Of a DNA stretch of 64,000 bases, positions 57,239-63,173 are shown piece by piece (position 1 is the first letter of the stretch; each line of letters begins with the position of its first letter). The notes beneath the pieces were generated by a model. It ran no database searches. It had not been told where the DNA came from and saw only the letters and a program-made list of their open reading frames with translations. The DNA comes from Alphaproteobacteria bacterium (GTDB lineage: Bacteria; Pseudomonadota; Alphaproteobacteria; Sphingomonadales; Sphingomonadaceae): the NCBI GenBank assembly GCA_018823905.1, contig JAHJHL010000044.1:40150-104149 (forward strand). The letters run 5' to 3'. The translations under genes were made by a program, and so were the position numbers.

Positions 57239-59077
57239 TCATTCTTCCTTCTCAATCCGCACCAGCAACGCCTCAACCTGCACCTGCGCGCCTGCGGTCG
57301 CATTGAGCTCGGCCACCACGCCGTCGAACGGCGCGGTCAGGCTATGCTCCATCTTCATCGCTTCGAGGGTGAGCAATTTCTGGCCTTTGGTCACTGTGTC
57401 GCCCGCAGCGACTTCGACCGCAATTACTTTGCCGGGCATAGGCGAAAGGATGGCGCCGTCGCCAGCTGCTCCGCCCGCGCCGCCCGCGGCGCGCCAAGGG
57501 GTGAGTTGCCACACGGAACCGCCTTCGGCGACGAGCATTGCAGGTACCGGTTCGTCGGTGCCGGGGCCGTGCAGGTCGACCTCGACACGCTTTCCATCGA
57601 GCAGAAAGGCTGCGGAGCGCACGTCGGGTGCGTTGAGACGGAAACCCGCCTGCAGCGAGTGCGGGACGATCGCCATCGCGGCGTTGGTGAGGGCTTCGAT
57701 CGTGGGAGCGGGCTCTTCGGTCATCGCATCGCCATCGCGGCCGATGAGCCCGGTATCGACGGTGCCTGCCACGAAGTCTTGATGAGCGAGCGCATTGATC
57801 AGGAAGGCCGAATTGGTCTTCACCGGCCAGATCGCGCTGTCCTCCAGCATCTCCGACAGCAGCTCGCGCGCTTCCTCACGATCGTCGCCATAAGCGATAA
57901 CCTTAGCGATCATCGGGTCATAGAAGGGCGAGACTCCGGCGCCTTCATAAACGCCGGTGTCGACGCGGCCGAGGTGCTCGGGAAGCTGGAACAGTTCGAG
58001 CGTGCCGATCGACGGCAGGAAACCCTTGGCGGGATCCTCGGCATAAAGCCGCGCTTCCATCGCCCAGCCGTTGATCGACAGCTCCTCCTGCCGCAGCGGC
58101 AACACCTCACCGCTCGCCACCCGCAATTGCCACTCAACCAGATCGACCCCGGTGATCTCCTCGGTCACGGGATGCTCGACCTGCAACCGCGTGTTCATTT
58201 CCATGAACCAGATGCGGTCGGCGCGCAGGCCTTCGCTGGCGTCGGCGATAAATTCGATCGTCCCGGCGCCGACATAATCGACCGCCTGCGCCGCGCGCAC
58301 CGCGGCGGCGCACAGCGCTTCGCGGGTGACCTCGTCCATGCCGGGGGCAGGGGCTTCTTCGATCACCTTCTGGTGGCGGCGTTGCAGCGAGCAGTCGCGC
58401 TCGAACAAATGGACGACATTGCCGTGGGTGTCGCCGAACACCTGCACCTCGATATGGCGCGGGGTCAGGATATATTTCTCGATCAGCACATGATCGTTGC
58501 CGAACGAGGCCGCCGCCTCGCGCTGGCATGAGGCGAGCGCGTCGATGAAGTCGGGCGCGGCATCGACCTTGCGCATCCCCTTGCCGCCGCCGCCCGCGAC
58601 CGCCTTGATCAGGACCGGATAGCCGATTTCGGCGGCGCGCTCGGCGAGGAAGGCGGGGTCCTGGTTTTCGCCCATATAGCCGGGAGTGACGGACACGCCG
58701 GCTTCGGCCATTAGCTTCTTCGCGGCGTCCTTAAGCCCCATCGCGGTGATCGACGAAGGATTCGGCCCGACCCACACGAGCCCCGCGTCGGCGACCGCCT
58801 GCGCGAACTCGGCATTTTCGGAGAGGAAGCCGTAACCCGGATGGATCGCCTCGGCTCCCGTCGCCTTGGCAGCAGCAATGATCTTTTCGCCGACCAGATA
58901 GGATTCGCGCGCTGGCGACGGGCCGATGTGGACGGCCTCGTCGGCCTGCCGGACATGCAGCGCCTTGGCGTCGGCATCCGAATAGACCGCAACGGTCCGA
59001 ATGCCCATCTCGCGCGCAGTGCGGATGATGCGGCAGGCGATCTCGCCGCGATTGGCGATGAGCAGGGATTGGATCAT
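57239..59077 (-). CDS. liuD: 3-methylcrotonyl-CoA carboxylase biotin carboxylase/BCCP subunit
   Basis: LIANRGEIACR, IHPGYGFLSEN, KAVAGGGGKGMR, ERDCSLQRRHQK, EMNTRLQVEHPVTE and biotin site EAMKME. Confidence 0.92.
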   Translation of the reverse strand: MIQSLLIANRGEIACRIIRTAREMGIRTVAVYSDADAKALHVRQADEAVHIGPSPARESYLVGEKIIAAAKATGAEAIHPGYGFLSENAEFAQAVADAGLVWVGPNPSSITAMGLKDAAKKLMAEAGVSVTPGYMGENQDPAFLAERAAEIGYPVLIKAVAGGGGKGMRKVDAAPDFIDALASCQREAAASFGNDHVLIEKYILTPRHIEVQVFGDTHGNVVHLFERDCSLQRRHQKVIEEAPAPGMDEVTREALCAAAVRAAQAVDYVGAGTIEFIADASEGLRADRIWFMEMNTRLQVEHPVTEEITGVDLVEWQLRVASGEVLPLRQEELSINGWAMEARLYAEDPAKGFLPSIGTLELFQLPEHLGRVDTGVYEGAGVSPFYDPMIAKVIAYGDDREEARELLSEMLEDSAIWPVKTNSAFLINALAHQDFVAGTVDTGLIGRDGDAMTEEPAPTIEALTNAAMAIVPHSLQAGFRLNAPDVRSAAFLLDGKRVEVDLHGPGTDEPVPAMLVAEGGSVWQLTPWRAAGGAGGAAGDGAILSPMPGKVIAVEVAAGDTVTKGQKLLTLEAMKMEHSLTAPFDGVVAELNATAGAQVQVEALLVRIEKEE

Positions 59078-59571
59078 AGCCGGTCCTCCCCGGATCGGGG
59101 AGAGGGACCATCCGAAGGATGGTGGAGGGGCCGCAAGCTATCGGCCAAAGCGAGGATGGATTGCGCTGTCGCCGCCGCATCCTTTAAAACATCAACAGCC
59201 GCTATCCGCACGATGTGCCATCCTCTCTCGTTTAAAATCCTGTCGCGCCGCGCGTCTCGTTCCGGGCGATCGGTCAAATCATGCGCCAGTCCATCAACCT
59301 CGACGAGCAATCGAACTTCGACACATGCAAAATCGGCGATGTAGTCGAGCACAGGAAACTGACGCCGAAATTTCAGTCCGGTCCGCTTGCCACGCAACTC
59401 GCGCCACAACAGCCCTTCTGGCAACGTCATTTCCCGTCGCAGCTTGCGCGCAAGCTTCACCGTCTTTGCAGGCGCGCCCACCGTCCGACGCCGCACCCGC
59501 CCTAATTCCTCCCCGGAACGGGGAGGGGGACCGCCCGAAGGGTGGTGGAGGGGCCGAGCGCTATCGGTCAT
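59074..59571 (-). CDS. DUF559/Vsr-like endonuclease domain protein embedded in repeats
   Basis: ARKLRREMT.PE.LLW..LR...KFRRQ.P...YIADF......LLVEVDG..H......RDARRD..L...GW...R. Stop overlaps the liuD ATG. An alternative GTG start is at 59481. Confidence 0.85.
   Translation of the reverse strand: MTDSARPLHHPSGGPPPRSGEELGRVRRRTVGAPAKTVKLARKLRREMTLPEGLLWRELRGKRTGLKFRRQFPVLDYIADFACVEVRLLVEVDGLAHDLTDRPERDARRDRILNERGWHIVRIAAVDVLKDAAATAQSILALADSLRPLHHPSDGPSPRSGEDRL
59084..59147. repeat. Direct repeat R1 (double GAA/GAT-loop hairpin REP)
   Basis: tcctccccggatcggggagagggaccatccgaaggatggtggaggggccgcaagctatcggcca; 55/64 identical to R2 by manual alignment. Confidence 0.9.
59507..59570. repeat. Direct repeat R2
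   Basis: tcctccccggaacggggagggggaccgcccgaagggtggtggaggggccgagcgctatcggtca. Confidence 0.9.
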
Positions 59572-59599
59572 TCACATGCTTTGGATGGCGAGGTTCCGA

Positions 59600-59646
59600 C
59601 CCCTCCGTCACCGCTTCGCGGCGCCACCTCCCCGTTCCGGGGAGGG
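59600..59646. repeat. Inverted repeat copy R3 (pairs with R2)
   Basis: Reverse complement contains cctccccggaacggggaggtggcgccgcgaagcggtgacggagggg. Confidence 0.88.
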
Positions 59647-59667
59647 ACAAATATGAGGCCGCCATGA

Positions 59668-61266
59668 TCACATCCTGAACACGCCGAACCCGCGGTCCTC
59701 GACCGGGGCGTTCAGCGTTGCGGCAAAAGCCAGCCCGAGCACGTCGCGCGTCTGCGCGGGGTCGATGATGCCGTCGTCCCACAGGCGCGCGGTCGCGTGG
59801 TACGGGTTGCCTTCGTCCTCGTATTTCTGGCGGATCGGCGCCTTGAAGGCTTCGGCTTCCTCGGGTGTCCATTTGTCGGCGTCGCGGTGGACCGTCGCCA
59901 GCACTGATGCTGCCTGTTCGCCGCCCATCACGCTGATCCGCGCATTGGGCCAGGTGAACAGCAAACGTGGGGAATAAGCGCGGCCACACATGCCGTAATT
60001 GCCGGCGCCGAAGCTGCCGCCGATCAGCACCGTGACCTTGGGCACCGTCGCAGTCGCGACCGCGGTCACCAGCTTGGCGCCATGCTTGGCGATGCCCTCG
60101 GCCTCATATTTGCCGCCGACCATGAAGCCGCTGATGTTCTGGAGGAAGAGCAGGGGGATGCGGCGTTGCTGCGCCAGTTCGATGAAATGCGCGCCCTTGA
60201 CCGCGGATTCGCTGAACAGCACGCCGTTGTTGGCGAGGATCGCGACGGGGATGCCCCAGATGTGCGCGAAACCGCAGACCAGCGTGCTGCCGTAATTGGC
60301 CTTGAACTCATGAAACTCGCTGGCGTCGACGATGCGCGCGATTACCTCATGCACATCATAGGGGGCGCGGACATCGTCGGGAACGACGCCGTAGAGCTGC
60401 TCGGGGTCATATTTGGGCGGGCGCGGATCTTTCAGCGCGACATCGAAGCCGGCGTCGGCGCCCAGATGGCTGACGATGTCACGCACGATCGTCAGCGCAT
60501 GCTCGTCATTCTCGGCGAGATGATCGACGACCCCCGACTTGCGCGCATGCAGGTCGCCGCCGCCGAGATCCTCGGCGCTGATTTCTTCCCCCGTCGCGGC
60601 TTTCACCAGCGGCGGACCGGCGAGGAAGATCGTGCCCTGATTGCGGACGATCACCGTCTCGTCGCTCATCGCGGGGACATAGGCGCCGCCCGCGGTGCAG
60701 CTGCCCATCACGCACGCGATTTGCGGGATACGCCGTGCCGACATATTGGCCTGGTTGAAAAAGATGCGCCCGAAATGGTCGCGGTCGGGAAACACCTGGT
60801 CCTGATGCGGCAGGTTCGCGCCGCCGCTGTCGACGAGGTAGATGCACGGCAGGCGATTTTCGAGCGCGATCTCCTGCGCGCGCAAATGCTTTTTCACGGT
60901 CAGCGGGTAGTAGGTGCCGCCCTTCACCGTCGCGTCGTTGCACACGATCATGCACTGGCGCCCCGACACCCGCCCGATGCCGCAGATTAGCCCTGCGCCC
61001 GGGACTTCGCCGTCATAGAGGTCGTTCGCCGCCAGCTGGCCGATTTCGAGAAAGGGCGATCCGGGGTCGAGCAGCCGTTCAACGCGTTCGCGCGGCAGCA
61101 GCTTGCCGCGGCTGGTGTGGCGCTCGCGTGATTTTTCGTTGCCGCCGAGCGCTGCTTCGGCGACGCGCGCCCATAATTCGTCTTTCAGCGCGCGGTTGTG
61201 CGCGGCGCGGATGCGAAACTCGTCGCTGTCGGGATCGACATTGGTGCCAAGGACCGGTGCGCTCAC
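59668..61266 (-). CDS. liuB: 3-methylcrotonyl-CoA carboxylase carboxyltransferase subunit
   Basis: [48 protein letters not shown] and [16 protein letters not shown]. Confidence 0.93.
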
Positions 61267-61556
61267 TGTAAAGTCTCTCCCCGCTTTTCGTCCGGATGCT
61301 CCGGTTTATCTTTCAGGATCAGGTAACGATAGACGCCGATCGCATTGATGATCAGCAGCGCGATATTCTGCCAACCGATACCTTCGCTGTCAGGTTGCAA
61401 AAAGCCCCATGCGATCAGTGCGATGCTGCTGGTGACAAAGATGACAAAGGCCCAGCCAGTGCGGCGGCGGCCGAGGTTCAGCGACACGATCAACGCCGCG
61501 AGCGTCGCGGCGCCCGCACCATAATATTGCAGGGCGGTGAGTAGCGTGTCGTTCAC
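61263..61556 (-). CDS. Small 3-TM membrane protein
   Basis: GTG 61556 overlaps the upstream stop, and its stop overlaps the liuB start. Hydrophobic helices. Confidence 0.7.
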
Positions 61557-61903
61557 GCCGCCGCGCCCAAGATCGCAAGCACGCCCGACGTGGTCAGGAT
61601 CGGCCAGCCGATGTGACGTCCGCGGGTATAGACGGCGTCGAACAATCCCACCGCGGTCCAAACCCCACCAACCAGCAGGATCAGACCGCGCGGCGTGCCG
61701 GGCCAGATAACGGTCGCGGCCGATACCAGCATCAACACCGACATTGCGTGCCAGGCAAAGCGAAACACCCTGCGCGCCAGATCGACCGCCATGATCCCTT
61801 GATCGAGCGCGAGCAGCGGCTGGATCAATCTTTTCTCGCCCAGCGCGCCATGCACCAAGGCCGTCGTCGCCATAAAGGCCGCCGACAGCCAGAGCCAGAT
61901 CAC
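61553..61903 (-). CDS. Small 4-TM membrane protein
   Basis: GTG 61903 overlaps the liuA stop (GTGA). Carries VHGALGE, FAWH and RHIGW conserved-looking His residues. Confidence 0.72.
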   Translation of the reverse strand: MIWLWLSAAFMATTALVHGALGEKRLIQPLLALDQGIMAVDLARRVFRFAWHAMSVLMLVSAATVIWPGTPRGLILLVGGVWTAVGLFDAVYTRGRHIGWPILTTSGVLAILGAAA

Positions 61904-63069
61904 GCGCCGGCGCCGATCAGTTCGCGGCCGATCAGCATCCGGCGGATCTCGTTGGTCCCCGCGCCGATGTCGAGCAGTTTGGCGTCGCGCCAATAGCGTT
62001 CGACCGGCCAGTCCTTGGTATAGCCCGCGCCGCCGAGCGCCTGGATCGCTTCGCCTGCGACCTTCACGGCATTTTCGCTCGCTAGAAGGATACAACCCGC
62101 GGCGTCGAAGCGGGTCGTCTGTCCCGCATCGCACGCCTTGGCGACGTTATAGACGTAGGAGCGCGCCGACTGGAGCATGACATACATGTCGGCAACCTTG
62201 GCCTGCATCAGCTGGAACGACCCGATCGGCTTGCCGAACTGCTTGCGATCGCGGACATAGGGGATGACGGTATCGAGGCACGCCTGCATGATGCCGAGCT
62301 GGAGCCCGGCGAGCACGACGCGCTCATAGTCGAGCCCCGACATCAGCACGCCGACGCCGCCATTTTTCGGCCCCATCACCTGCTCTTCGGAGACTTCGCA
62401 ATCGTTGAAAACGAGCTCGGCGGTCGGCGAGCCGCGCATCCCGACCTTGTCGATCTTTTGCCCGATGCTGAACCCCGGCATATCCTTTTCGATAAGGAAA
62501 GCGGTGATGCCGCGCGATCCTGCTTCGGGGCTGGTCTTGGCATAGACGACCAACGTGTCGGCGTGCGTCGCGTTGGTGATCCAGAATTTGGTGCCGTTGA
62601 GGACATAGCCGCCCTGAACACGGTCGGCCTTCAGCTTCATCGACACGACGTCGCTGCCCGCGCCCGCTTCGGACATCGCAAGGCTGCCGACATGATCGCC
62701 GCTGATCAGTTTGGGCAGATACTTCGCTTTCTGGTCGGCATTGCCCCAGCGGCGGATCTGGTTGACGCAGAGGTTCGAATGGGCGCCGTAGGACAGGCCG
62801 ATAGCGCCGCTCGCGCGGCTCACTTCTTCGACCGCTATGACATGCTCGAGATAGCCGAGGCCAAGCCCGCCGAACTCTTCTTCGACGGTGATGCCGTGCA
62901 GGCCCAGATCGCCCATCTGCGTCCATAGTTCGTCGCGCGGGAACCAGTCTTCGGCGTCGGCTTTTGCAGCGAGCGGCGCGATCTGTTCGTCGGCGAAGCG
63001 AGCGGTGGTGTCGCGGATCATGTCGGCGGTTTCGCCGAGCGCGAAATCGAAGTCGGGAGTTGCGCGCAT
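61900..63069 (-). CDS. liuA: Isovaleryl-CoA dehydrogenase
   Basis: LSYGAHSNLCVNQ, SLAMSEAGAGSDVVSM, LNGTKFWITN, GLDYERVVL, ALGGAGY and IGAGTNEIRR. Confidence 0.95.
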   Translation of the reverse strand: MRATPDFDFALGETADMIRDTTARFADEQIAPLAAKADAEDWFPRDELWTQMGDLGLHGITVEEEFGGLGLGYLEHVIAVEEVSRASGAIGLSYGAHSNLCVNQIRRWGNADQKAKYLPKLISGDHVGSLAMSEAGAGSDVVSMKLKADRVQGGYVLNGTKFWITNATHADTLVVYAKTSPEAGSRGITAFLIEKDMPGFSIGQKIDKVGMRGSPTAELVFNDCEVSEEQVMGPKNGGVGVLMSGLDYERVVLAGLQLGIMQACLDTVIPYVRDRKQFGKPIGSFQLMQAKVADMYVMLQSARSYVYNVAKACDAGQTTRFDAAGCILLASENAVKVAGEAIQALGGAGYTKDWPVERYWRDAKLLDIGAGTNEIRRMLIGRELIGAGA

Positions 63070-63156
63070 GGATGGGCCTATCGATCGAGGGCGGGACAGG
63101 GCGCGATACTGCCCCAAAAATTGATCATATGGAAATTGAAACGATAGGGGATTTAG

Positions 63157-63173
63157 CATAAGCAAAATCTATG
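63157..63173. promoter_or_regulatory. LysR-type recognition site CATA-N9-TATG (T-N11-A)
   Basis: cataagcaaaatctatg lies in the divergent liuA/LysR gap and overlaps the LysR start codon. Confidence 0.6.

Follow-up and report, generated by a model that had tools for sequence, protein, structure and literature searches.

A DUF559 nuclease gene amid its own triplex-type repeats in the liuB-liuD gap of Sphingopyxis, a candidate for a REP/RAYT-like partnership

We analyzed a 64,000-nucleotide (nt) stretch of a Sphingopyxis genome (contig JAHJHL010000044.1; the whole stretch is called the window, and positions refer to it), in which a small gene for a predicted nuclease of the DUF559 family lies between liuB and liuD of a leucine-degradation operon, together with three copies (R1, R2, and R3) of a G/C-rich repeat. 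The block at 59074-59645 represents a unit of two parts that recurs generally in Sphingomonadales and outside this order, a small DUF559 gene with a Vsr / I-Bth0305I-like fold amid copies of its own lineage-specific G/C-rich repeat. We propose that the nuclease and its repeat form a resident partnership that works like REP/RAYT, a reading for which we consider the chances to be about even. Triplex-type repeats (BoxC, PIT, and TMECO) have been known since the 1990s. To our knowledge, they have neither a known function nor a known partner, and we know of almost no function assigned within DUF559, which is a very large family. The lineage-matched pairing of DUF559 and repeat described here gives both partners a testable hypothesis.

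Association of DUF559 genes with triplex-type repeats

This genome has three DUF559 genes, which are 35 to 37% identical to each other, and all three are bracketed by triplex-type repeats of a different family each; the paralogue on contig C32 goes with a CCCCTCCC-family repeat. A preliminary description of the window had proposed such a genome-wide count of DUF559 copies and their flanks. We used a repeat scanner that allowed one mismatch per arm, and the same scanner was applied to the controls. Among 79 DUF559 loci from 24 congeners and other Sphingomonadales, repeats were present on both sides at 69 loci, on one side at 9, and on neither side at 1, versus both-side flanking of 3/2681 crude genes of this genome (Fisher p = 1e-122). 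An independent sample of 65 loci from public genomes with adequate flanks gave 59 loci with repeats on both sides, 4 with repeats on one side, and 2 with none, versus 0/62 control windows placed 1.5 kb away. These results support the earlier supposition of a specific link between the nuclease gene and its repeat family. The same association was seen in a phylum-wide sample of 30 loci, where many of the repeats fit the TMECO consensus proper. In the literature that could be searched, we found no paper linking DUF559 with BoxC/triplex repeats.

The usual layout is repeat(+)-gene-repeat(-), which accounts for 56 of the 69 loci flanked on both sides. The doublet-gene-repeat layout of the window, with R1 and R2 as a direct pair, is a minority form (9/69). 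When DUF559 proteins were clustered at ≥60% amino acid (aa) identity, 24 clusters resulted, and every multi-member cluster had a particular signature of stem, loop, and third arm, with distances between gene and repeat that did not vary. Gene and repeats are inherited as a unit, with a lineage-specific repeat signature at a fixed spacing. Across 25 genomes, the number of DUF559 genes also correlated with the number of repeats (Spearman rho = 0.85, p = 6e-8, not corrected for phylogeny). For the TTCA family, 4/4 genomes with the cognate gene had 13 to 25 copies, versus 3/21 gene-less genomes with 10 or more (p = 0.003).

R1 and R2 are direct repeats with 55/64 identical bases (about 1e-16 expected by chance in the 1.7-kb region), and R3 is inverted relative to R2 (49 nt, 76% complementary), both as first described. 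Every one of the three copies folds into two hairpins, and R2 and R3 together fold into one long hairpin (-53.5 kcal/mol, z = -7.85). The claim that compensatory changes keep the second hairpin was made from these three copies and extends to the family as a whole, which has 23 different stems in 43 copies and 289 Watson-Crick versus 23 non-Watson-Crick pairs; the second-hairpin mispairs (six G·T versus one A·C) are too few for any inference of strand bias. In R2 and R3, the arms are CCTCCCC, a loop, GGGGAGG, a second hairpin of 18 to 20 nt, and GGAGGGG, and the minus-strand sequence of R3 reads CCTCCCC-GGAAC-GGGGAGG-TGGCGCCGC GAA GCGGTGAC-GGAGGGG. The third arm mirrors the purine arm (GGGGAGG / GGAGGGG) instead of copying it directly, and this mirror rule is also found in other families of the genus, with T opposite A. 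Copies of type A (R1 and R2) have the form ...GGGGGACC, stem, GGTGGAGGGG, and those of type B (R3) have the form ...GGTGGC.., stem, ..GACGGAGGGG. Doublets in the window family always pair one type A copy with one type B copy.

As judged from this arrangement of arms, the repeats follow the grammar of an intrastrand purine-motif triplex (the BoxC/TMECO class), with the hairpin as the second loop. They had been taken for REPs, and we assign them to the triplex-motif class instead of the classical REPs. The window family does not fit the TMECO consensus (CCCTCNCCC N3-6 GGGNGAGGG N3 GGGNGAGGG) and is a variant within the triplex class, distinct from TMECO. A search of Rfam for a known RNA family gave only far sub-threshold miRNA-hairpin noise on the R2/R3 stem.

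The window family has 39 copies at 25 loci in this genome, including 13 "+-" inverted doublets with spacers of 36 to 46 or 92 to 97 nt, R2 and R3 being one of these doublets. R2 is identical at 48/48 positions to a dispersed copy on contig C90. R1 carries a mutation at one position of its purine arm (GGGGAGA), and it matches other copies at about 92% at best. R2 adjoins a "gctatcgg" extension, which had been interpreted as the flank of an integration target. This extension belongs to the repeat unit and not to a target flank; it is conserved in a doublet of genome G016, and a similar string abuts another copy. In the G016 doublet, the ends of the spacer are conserved and its middle has been replaced.

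The nuclease open reading frame (ORF) matches Pfam family PF04480 with an E value of 1.5e-28 (99.3 bits with a cut-off of 20.6; profile positions 3-106 of 109). The DUF559 domain is encoded at about 59149-59463, and the last 20 or so codons of the ORF lie within R1. A sequence search of the PDB with the protein returned 3HRL (E = 2.5e-11). An AlphaFold 2 (AF2) model of the protein (pLDDT 87.5) gave 3hrl as its top Foldseek match (TM 0.84), followed by 3r3p, the catalytic domain of the homing endonuclease I-Bth0305I (TM 0.75, E = 1.7e-3), and the match to Vsr (1vsr) was weaker (TM 0.36). The model thus predicts a restriction-endonuclease-like fold. Residues D55, E66, D68, H72, D81, R84, and R97 are invariant or nearly so in 43 homologues and are all present in the window protein, and the active-site pattern D...E-x-D...H-D is conserved, which indicates an active site that is intact by sequence. 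The ratio of nonsynonymous to synonymous substitution rates (dN/dS) of the DUF559 lineages was 0.04 to 0.25.

The ATG at 59571 is without a ribosome-binding site. R2, which in gene orientation ends ...CCGGGGAGGA, supplies a GGAGGA (59507-59512, minus strand), and a GTG codon at 59496-59494 lies 10 nt past it and opens the conserved N-terminal helix (VRRRTVGAPAKTVKLARKLRRE...). From this context, GTG 59496 is likely to be the start of the nuclease gene and, because of the same 10-nt spacing, R2 is probably a 5' leader and not coding sequence. For the 71 loci that have an intact core and a repeat upstream, the median distance from that repeat to the first in-frame start was also 10 nt, and we therefore consider the G-rich end of the repeat to be a Shine-Dalgarno sequence. 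The ORF had been said to read through both repeats. This is correct for R1, where the read-through tail ends ...PLHHPSDGPSPRSGEDRL followed by the stop codon and the repeat is likewise read through in 50/65 loci, but it does not apply to R2, which most likely lies upstream of the start codon. The R1-encoded tail (residues 121 to 140) is unstructured in the AF2 model. For annotation, this means that GC-rich "PLHHP..GPPPR.GE" tails and N-terminal extensions are repeat encoded and are not protein features.

At the other end of the gene, R1 supplies a GGAGGA (59084-59089, minus strand) 6 nt ahead of the liuD ATG, and the TGA of the nuclease ORF overlaps that ATG (59075-59077) as ATGA. The view that the insertion avoids polarity on liuD is upheld, since the repeat gives a ribosome-binding site and a start context and the stop codon overlaps the ATG. 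Because the G-rich end of the repeat acts as GGAGG(A) shortly ahead of the following start codon, an operon can accommodate the unit while liuD is still translated. No promoter or terminator belonging to the nuclease gene was found at 58800-59900, and we therefore treat the gene as cotranscribed with the operon. The gene order on the minus strand is isovaleryl-CoA dehydrogenase, a small ORF, liuB, the nuclease/repeat block, and liuD (Table 1).

Table 1. Positions of the nuclease/repeat block and of the surrounding operon genes in the window
Feature	Position	Strand	Remarks
DUF559 (Vsr-like PD-(D/E)xK) predicted nuclease gene	59074..59496	-	140 aa from GTG 59496; longest ORF reaches ATG 59571
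R1, degenerate type A triplex-motif repeat	59084..59147	+	Encodes nuclease C-terminal tail; folds as two hairpins
R2, type A triplex-motif repeat	59507..59570	+	Upstream of nuclease gene; direct orientation with R1
R3, type B triplex-motif repeat	59597..59645	-	Outer doublet arm; G-rich arm faces gene; family pattern at 59600-59645
R2/R3 doublet spacer, 46 nt	59554..59599	.	Includes "gctatcgg" extension on its R2 side
liuD, methylcrotonyl-CoA carboxylase alpha subunit (biotin carboxylase plus biotinyl domain)	57239..59077	-	Pfam CPSase_L_D2, Biotin_carb_N/C, Biotin_lipoyl
liuB, methylcrotonyl-CoA carboxylase beta subunit (carboxyltransferase)	59668..61266	-	Pfam Carboxyl_trans, E = 7.7e-157; upstream of block
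132-aa ORF with hydrophobic stretches	61263-61661	-	No Pfam match; between isovaleryl-CoA dehydrogenase gene and liuB; stop overlaps start of liuB
Isovaleryl-CoA dehydrogenase gene	61900-63165	-	First gene of the listed order

The liuB-liuD gap and the dispersed doublets

We compared the liuB-liuD gap (window 59078-59667) with L022-L045, where the flanks are 91 to 99% identical; the last 199 residues of liuB show 91 to 99% aa identity throughout the genus. The preliminary description predicted empty alleles in relatives, and the site is indeed polymorphic in the genus, with an empty gap (8 nt) in genomes G007, G012, and G017. In 14 species, the gap holds at least 11 unrelated, translationally coupled small ORFs (211 to 1373 nt), none of which carries triplex-type repeats. 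Nearly all gap ORFs begin at the liuB stop or overlap it, and their ...ATGATC ends overlap the start of liuD. Some gap ORF modules (the 319-nt "orfI" and "orfH") recur in varying combinations. In seven species, the gap holds DUF559, with about four architectures and at least three lineages, which share only 40 to 47% identity.

On the liuB tree, the gap states are scattered (trees were built from short alignments), and the nearest relatives of this genome have another DUF559 lineage (G005), an unrelated ORF (G018), or an empty gap (G017). These gap contents contradict vertical inheritance within the genus as the sole explanation of the window copy. The synonymous divergence (dS) of DUF559 is 1.5 to 4 times that of liuB in the same genome pairs. 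Among the 50 best public relatives of the gene, 25 lie in the liuB-liuD gap, in at least six genera, with 16 in sense and 9 in antisense orientation, and these gap copies belong to at least four DUF559 clades that are interleaved with copies at other sites. The antisense copies come from nine genomes of other genera (L173, L188, L191, L193-L195, L197, L201, and L204), and the antisense state is what recombination between inverted flanking repeats would produce. The DUF559 copy number ranges from 0 to 11 within the genus, and several copies contain stops.

In G001, G019, and G022, a 30- to 34-nt copy of the liuD 5' end (ATGATCCAATCCCTCCTCATCGCCAATCGCGGCG) stands immediately left of the block, and the real liuD start follows the block (L039:2646-2679, the L040:2463-2496 region, and L045:2697-2726). 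The copy results either from target duplication, which would then be very long, or from an illegitimate join facilitated by homology. Such an event seems to have happened two or more times, at almost the same codon.

The block had been described as a candidate selfish element integrated at a pre-existing repeat. A recent insertion of this kind was not borne out; we found no target-site duplication, the lineages are mostly syntenic, and the gene is under purifying selection. Nearly every DUF559 cluster is syntenic across species. No two near-identical DUF559 copies were found in any one of the genomes compared, and no substitutions of the kind that would protect a target were seen in the liuB 3' or liuD 5' ends when occupied and empty alleles were compared. 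The unit occupies a limited set of chromosomal slots, the liuB-liuD gap among them.

The doublets away from any nuclease gene share sequence with the gene units. The 92- to 97-nt doublet spacers begin and end with an inverted repeat whose gene-distal end, ..GGCAAACCGCCGGTG (adjoining the triplex-motif repeat), corresponds to the 3' end of cluster-5 DUF559 genes (..GGCAAACCGCCTGTG). Because of this shared subterminal sequence, some doublets look like internally deleted derivatives, and by analogy doublet and gene unit would be related in the way that a miniature inverted-repeat transposable element (MITE) is related to its autonomous element. The reverse history, with the gene inserted into a doublet, may apply instead. 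Conserved nonpalindromic outer modules are also present in doublets, with ...AGCGACCAATTGCGG(N7-10)GAT on one side and ATCGGC.ACGTCCGC.CCCACCCCAAA on the other (C90:15100-15400, C96:31190-31470, C167:41960-42190, C32:5750-6030, and C54:3380-3650), and on account of these modules we regard the dispersed unit as a mosaic of about 250 nt, similar to a BIME. A CCCACCCCAAA-like module is also present at the orthologous site in relatives with a different repeat. At the C90 locus, relatives have other repeats or hairpins at the same intergenic site, which has changed by replacement and not by simple insertion. The convergent site orthologous to C90:15020-15480 is filled by a palindromic family (..GTCACCCCGGACTTGATCCGGGG...CCCGGATCAAGTCCGGGATGAC..) in G004, G018, G006, and G011 (L108, L109, L111, and L115), and this genome has a triplex-motif doublet there. 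In these genomes, intergenic DNA is a mosaic to which several repeat families contribute.

A proposed mechanism and its alternatives

We rank a REP/RAYT-like partnership first, followed by a host nuclease, a homing cassette, and chance. In the partnership, the enzyme would be a resident of the PD-(D/E)xK class that is mostly inherited vertically, rather than a hopping transposon. The nuclease would recognize its cognate repeat, probably as an extruded hairpin or triplex, and cut there. The resulting repair or recombination would keep the repeats alike and spread doublets, and the same events would invert, lose, or swap the gene cassette among repeat-bearing sites. The window copy probably reached the slot, or was replaced in it, by recombination, for which the conserved liuB/liuD flanks or the repeats would have served. 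Such a pairing would be the second case, beside REP/RAYT, in which a resident enzyme has a repeat population tied to it. The pairing may also account for the rearrangement hot spots at such loci and for the flagging of DUF559 among predicted inversion targets, where the family appears as a row in a table (PMC9881135).

Several observations weigh against this partnership. Binding and cutting of the repeats by DUF559 proteins are steps that we infer throughout. Repeats are also abundant in some genomes that lack the gene. G007 has 49 copies of the window family and lacks the cognate nuclease, another family has 26 copies in G013 and 14 in G014, neither of which has any DUF559, and G005 has 23 TTCA copies without the cognate gene. 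Because gene-less genomes keep such populations, the repeats last without the gene at least as long as it takes species to diverge. G020 has the gene but only two copies genome-wide, consistent with its own flanking repeats. Gene and flanks would also covary if the repeats were mere cis parts of an inherited cassette, and the correlations ignore relatedness. At the doublet borders examined, we found no target-site duplication and no clean insertion boundary. Finally, the only DUF559 protein studied genetically, Caulobacter VsrA, has been linked to cytosine methylation and not to repeats.

The alternative that we place second is a host nuclease accompanied by cis-acting hairpins, which we think rather unlikely. 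The enzyme would have a Vsr-like role in repair or defense and would not act on the repeats, which would be parts of the cassette (an insulator, a ribosome-binding site, or an mRNA stabilizer) or accumulated recombination-prone DNA. Strong purifying selection and syntenic inheritance fit such a role, as do the repeats that stay intact in gene-less genomes and the G-arm that acts as a Shine-Dalgarno sequence. Caulobacter VsrA can damage chromosomal DNA in vivo and triggers a DNA damage response upon loss of a cytosine methyltransferase. However, we found no C5-cytosine methyltransferase in this genome (no PF00145 match in an assembly that is 95.6% complete, with controls detected), which would leave a classical Vsr role without its partner. 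A host nuclease also leaves unexplained why dispersed gene-less doublets track the numbers and lineages of nucleases, why the 3' end of the gene is found within doublet spacers, and why the copy number varies from 0 to 11 within one genus.

We consider it less probable again, and unlikely overall, that the block is a selfish homing cassette resembling a free-standing homing gene, which is a sharper form of the reading in the preliminary description. The nuclease would cut sites that lack it, either repeat-bearing or specific to the slot, and be copied in by break repair, with the repeats or the conserved liuB/liuD ends as homology arms, and R1 and R2 would mark integration beside a pre-existing doublet. 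The state of the gap is what recommends this explanation, with presence/absence polymorphism and clean empty alleles, incongruence with the liuB tree, and the same slot filled, in one orientation or the other, by DUF559 genes from at least four interleaved clades across at least six genera. The I-Bth0305I catalytic domain as the second-best structural match, the liuD 5'-end copy left of the block in three genomes, and the identity of R2 to dispersed copies next to an older R1 would also fit. The explanation does not account for there being one copy per lineage per genome despite dozens of unoccupied potential repeat targets, for the synteny of most lineages between species, or for the lack of occupancy-linked substitutions in the liuB 3' and liuD 5' ends. 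Repeat-free, unrelated ORFs also occupy the slot and, because they do, recombination through the conserved flanks alone can explain the turnover.

The last alternative, that repeats pile up in any intergenic space and flank a small gene by chance, could draw on the mosaic makeup of intergenic regions but is extremely improbable and is refuted by the controls, since control genes and windows were almost never flanked versus 87 to 91% of DUF559 loci, and other ORFs in the same liuB-liuD slot are without such repeats.

Comparison with known systems

The layout of the block is like that of RAYT/REPIN, as had been suggested, with a PD-(D/E)xK enzyme for which the nearest characterized fold is a homing endonuclease domain. 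As in REP/REPIN-RAYT systems, a single-copy, largely vertical enzyme gene is flanked by inverted copies of its own short structured repeat, further copies of this repeat are scattered as inverted doublets without a gene, and one genome has several enzyme/repeat families. The repeat population also seems only loosely tied to the presence of the gene, with positive correlations and exceptions in both directions. The two systems differ in both partners. The enzyme here is a PD-(D/E)xK protein of the Vsr fold, whereas RAYT is an HUH Y1 transposase, and the repeat here is of the three-arm triplex type, whereas a REP is a simple palindrome with a GTAG/CGTC head; the action of the enzyme on the repeat is something that we infer here. 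The earlier statement that no HUH transposase is involved is supported by the lack of any PF01797 match genome-wide, with positive controls detected, and by the lack of a transposase in the block. The absence of a Y1 transposase from the genome rules out a classical REP/RAYT system.

Insertion sequences (IS) with MITE derivatives are similar in having a gene unit bounded by terminal inverted repeats and shorter gene-less units with the same ends and subterminal sequence. They are unlike the unit described here, for which we found neither a transposase family nor a target-site duplication, and of which we did not find several identical full-length copies. The DUF559 protein shares its catalytic fold and the E-x-D...H-D motif with I-Bth0305I (EDxHD family), and free-standing homing endonuclease genes share its presence or absence between two conserved genes and its incongruent phylogeny. 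Here, in contrast, neither an intron nor an intein is present, dispersed repeats bracket the gene, and each lineage has one copy despite the many repeat sites. Vsr and Caulobacter VsrA belong to the same fold superfamily. The weak structural match to Vsr sets the window protein apart, as do the multiple divergent paralogues per genome, each with its own repeat.

The repeats themselves are closest to BoxC/PIT/TMECO of Enterobacteria. Holder et al. (2015) described TMECO/BoxC as a pyrimidine arm, a loop, a purine arm, a second loop, and a mirror G-rich arm (PMC4666352). TMECO inverted doublets always pair subtypes A and B, their loci are hypervariable, and no mobility gene was ever found near TMECO/BoxC repeats (PMC4666352). 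The repeats analyzed here have the same three-arm grammar, are G/C-rich, intergenic, and multicopy, form doublets of two subtypes, and occupy loci that are hypervariable between relatives. The window family has 7- to 8-nt arms (CCTCCCC) and a hairpin loop of 18 to 20 nt, whereas TMECO has 9-nt arms and a 3-nt loop; other families of the same genus, and many in the phylum, do fit the TMECO consensus. In Escherichia coli K-12, a TMECO lies 150 nt downstream of the DUF559 gene ycjD and a degenerate copy lies at the ycjD stop, with nothing upstream. At L155:7041-7420, a degenerate duplicate of about 50 nt of the ycjD 3' end (GGAGACGGTGCTGGAGAATATTC..) lies between the stop and the TMECO, which echoes the sharing of sequence between gene end and spacer in the Sphingopyxis doublets.

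These likenesses raise a broader possibility, which we put forward tentatively and regard as doubtful, that DUF559 nucleases are the missing partner enzymes of bacterial BoxC/triplex repeats, with each lineage cutting its own three-arm repeat and so maintaining, homogenizing, and spreading doublets. If this is true, it would be a second, independently evolved replicator of the REPIN/RAYT kind, built from a PD-(D/E)xK nuclease and a non-B DNA structure, and it would explain the "genomic instability" reported at triplex repeats.

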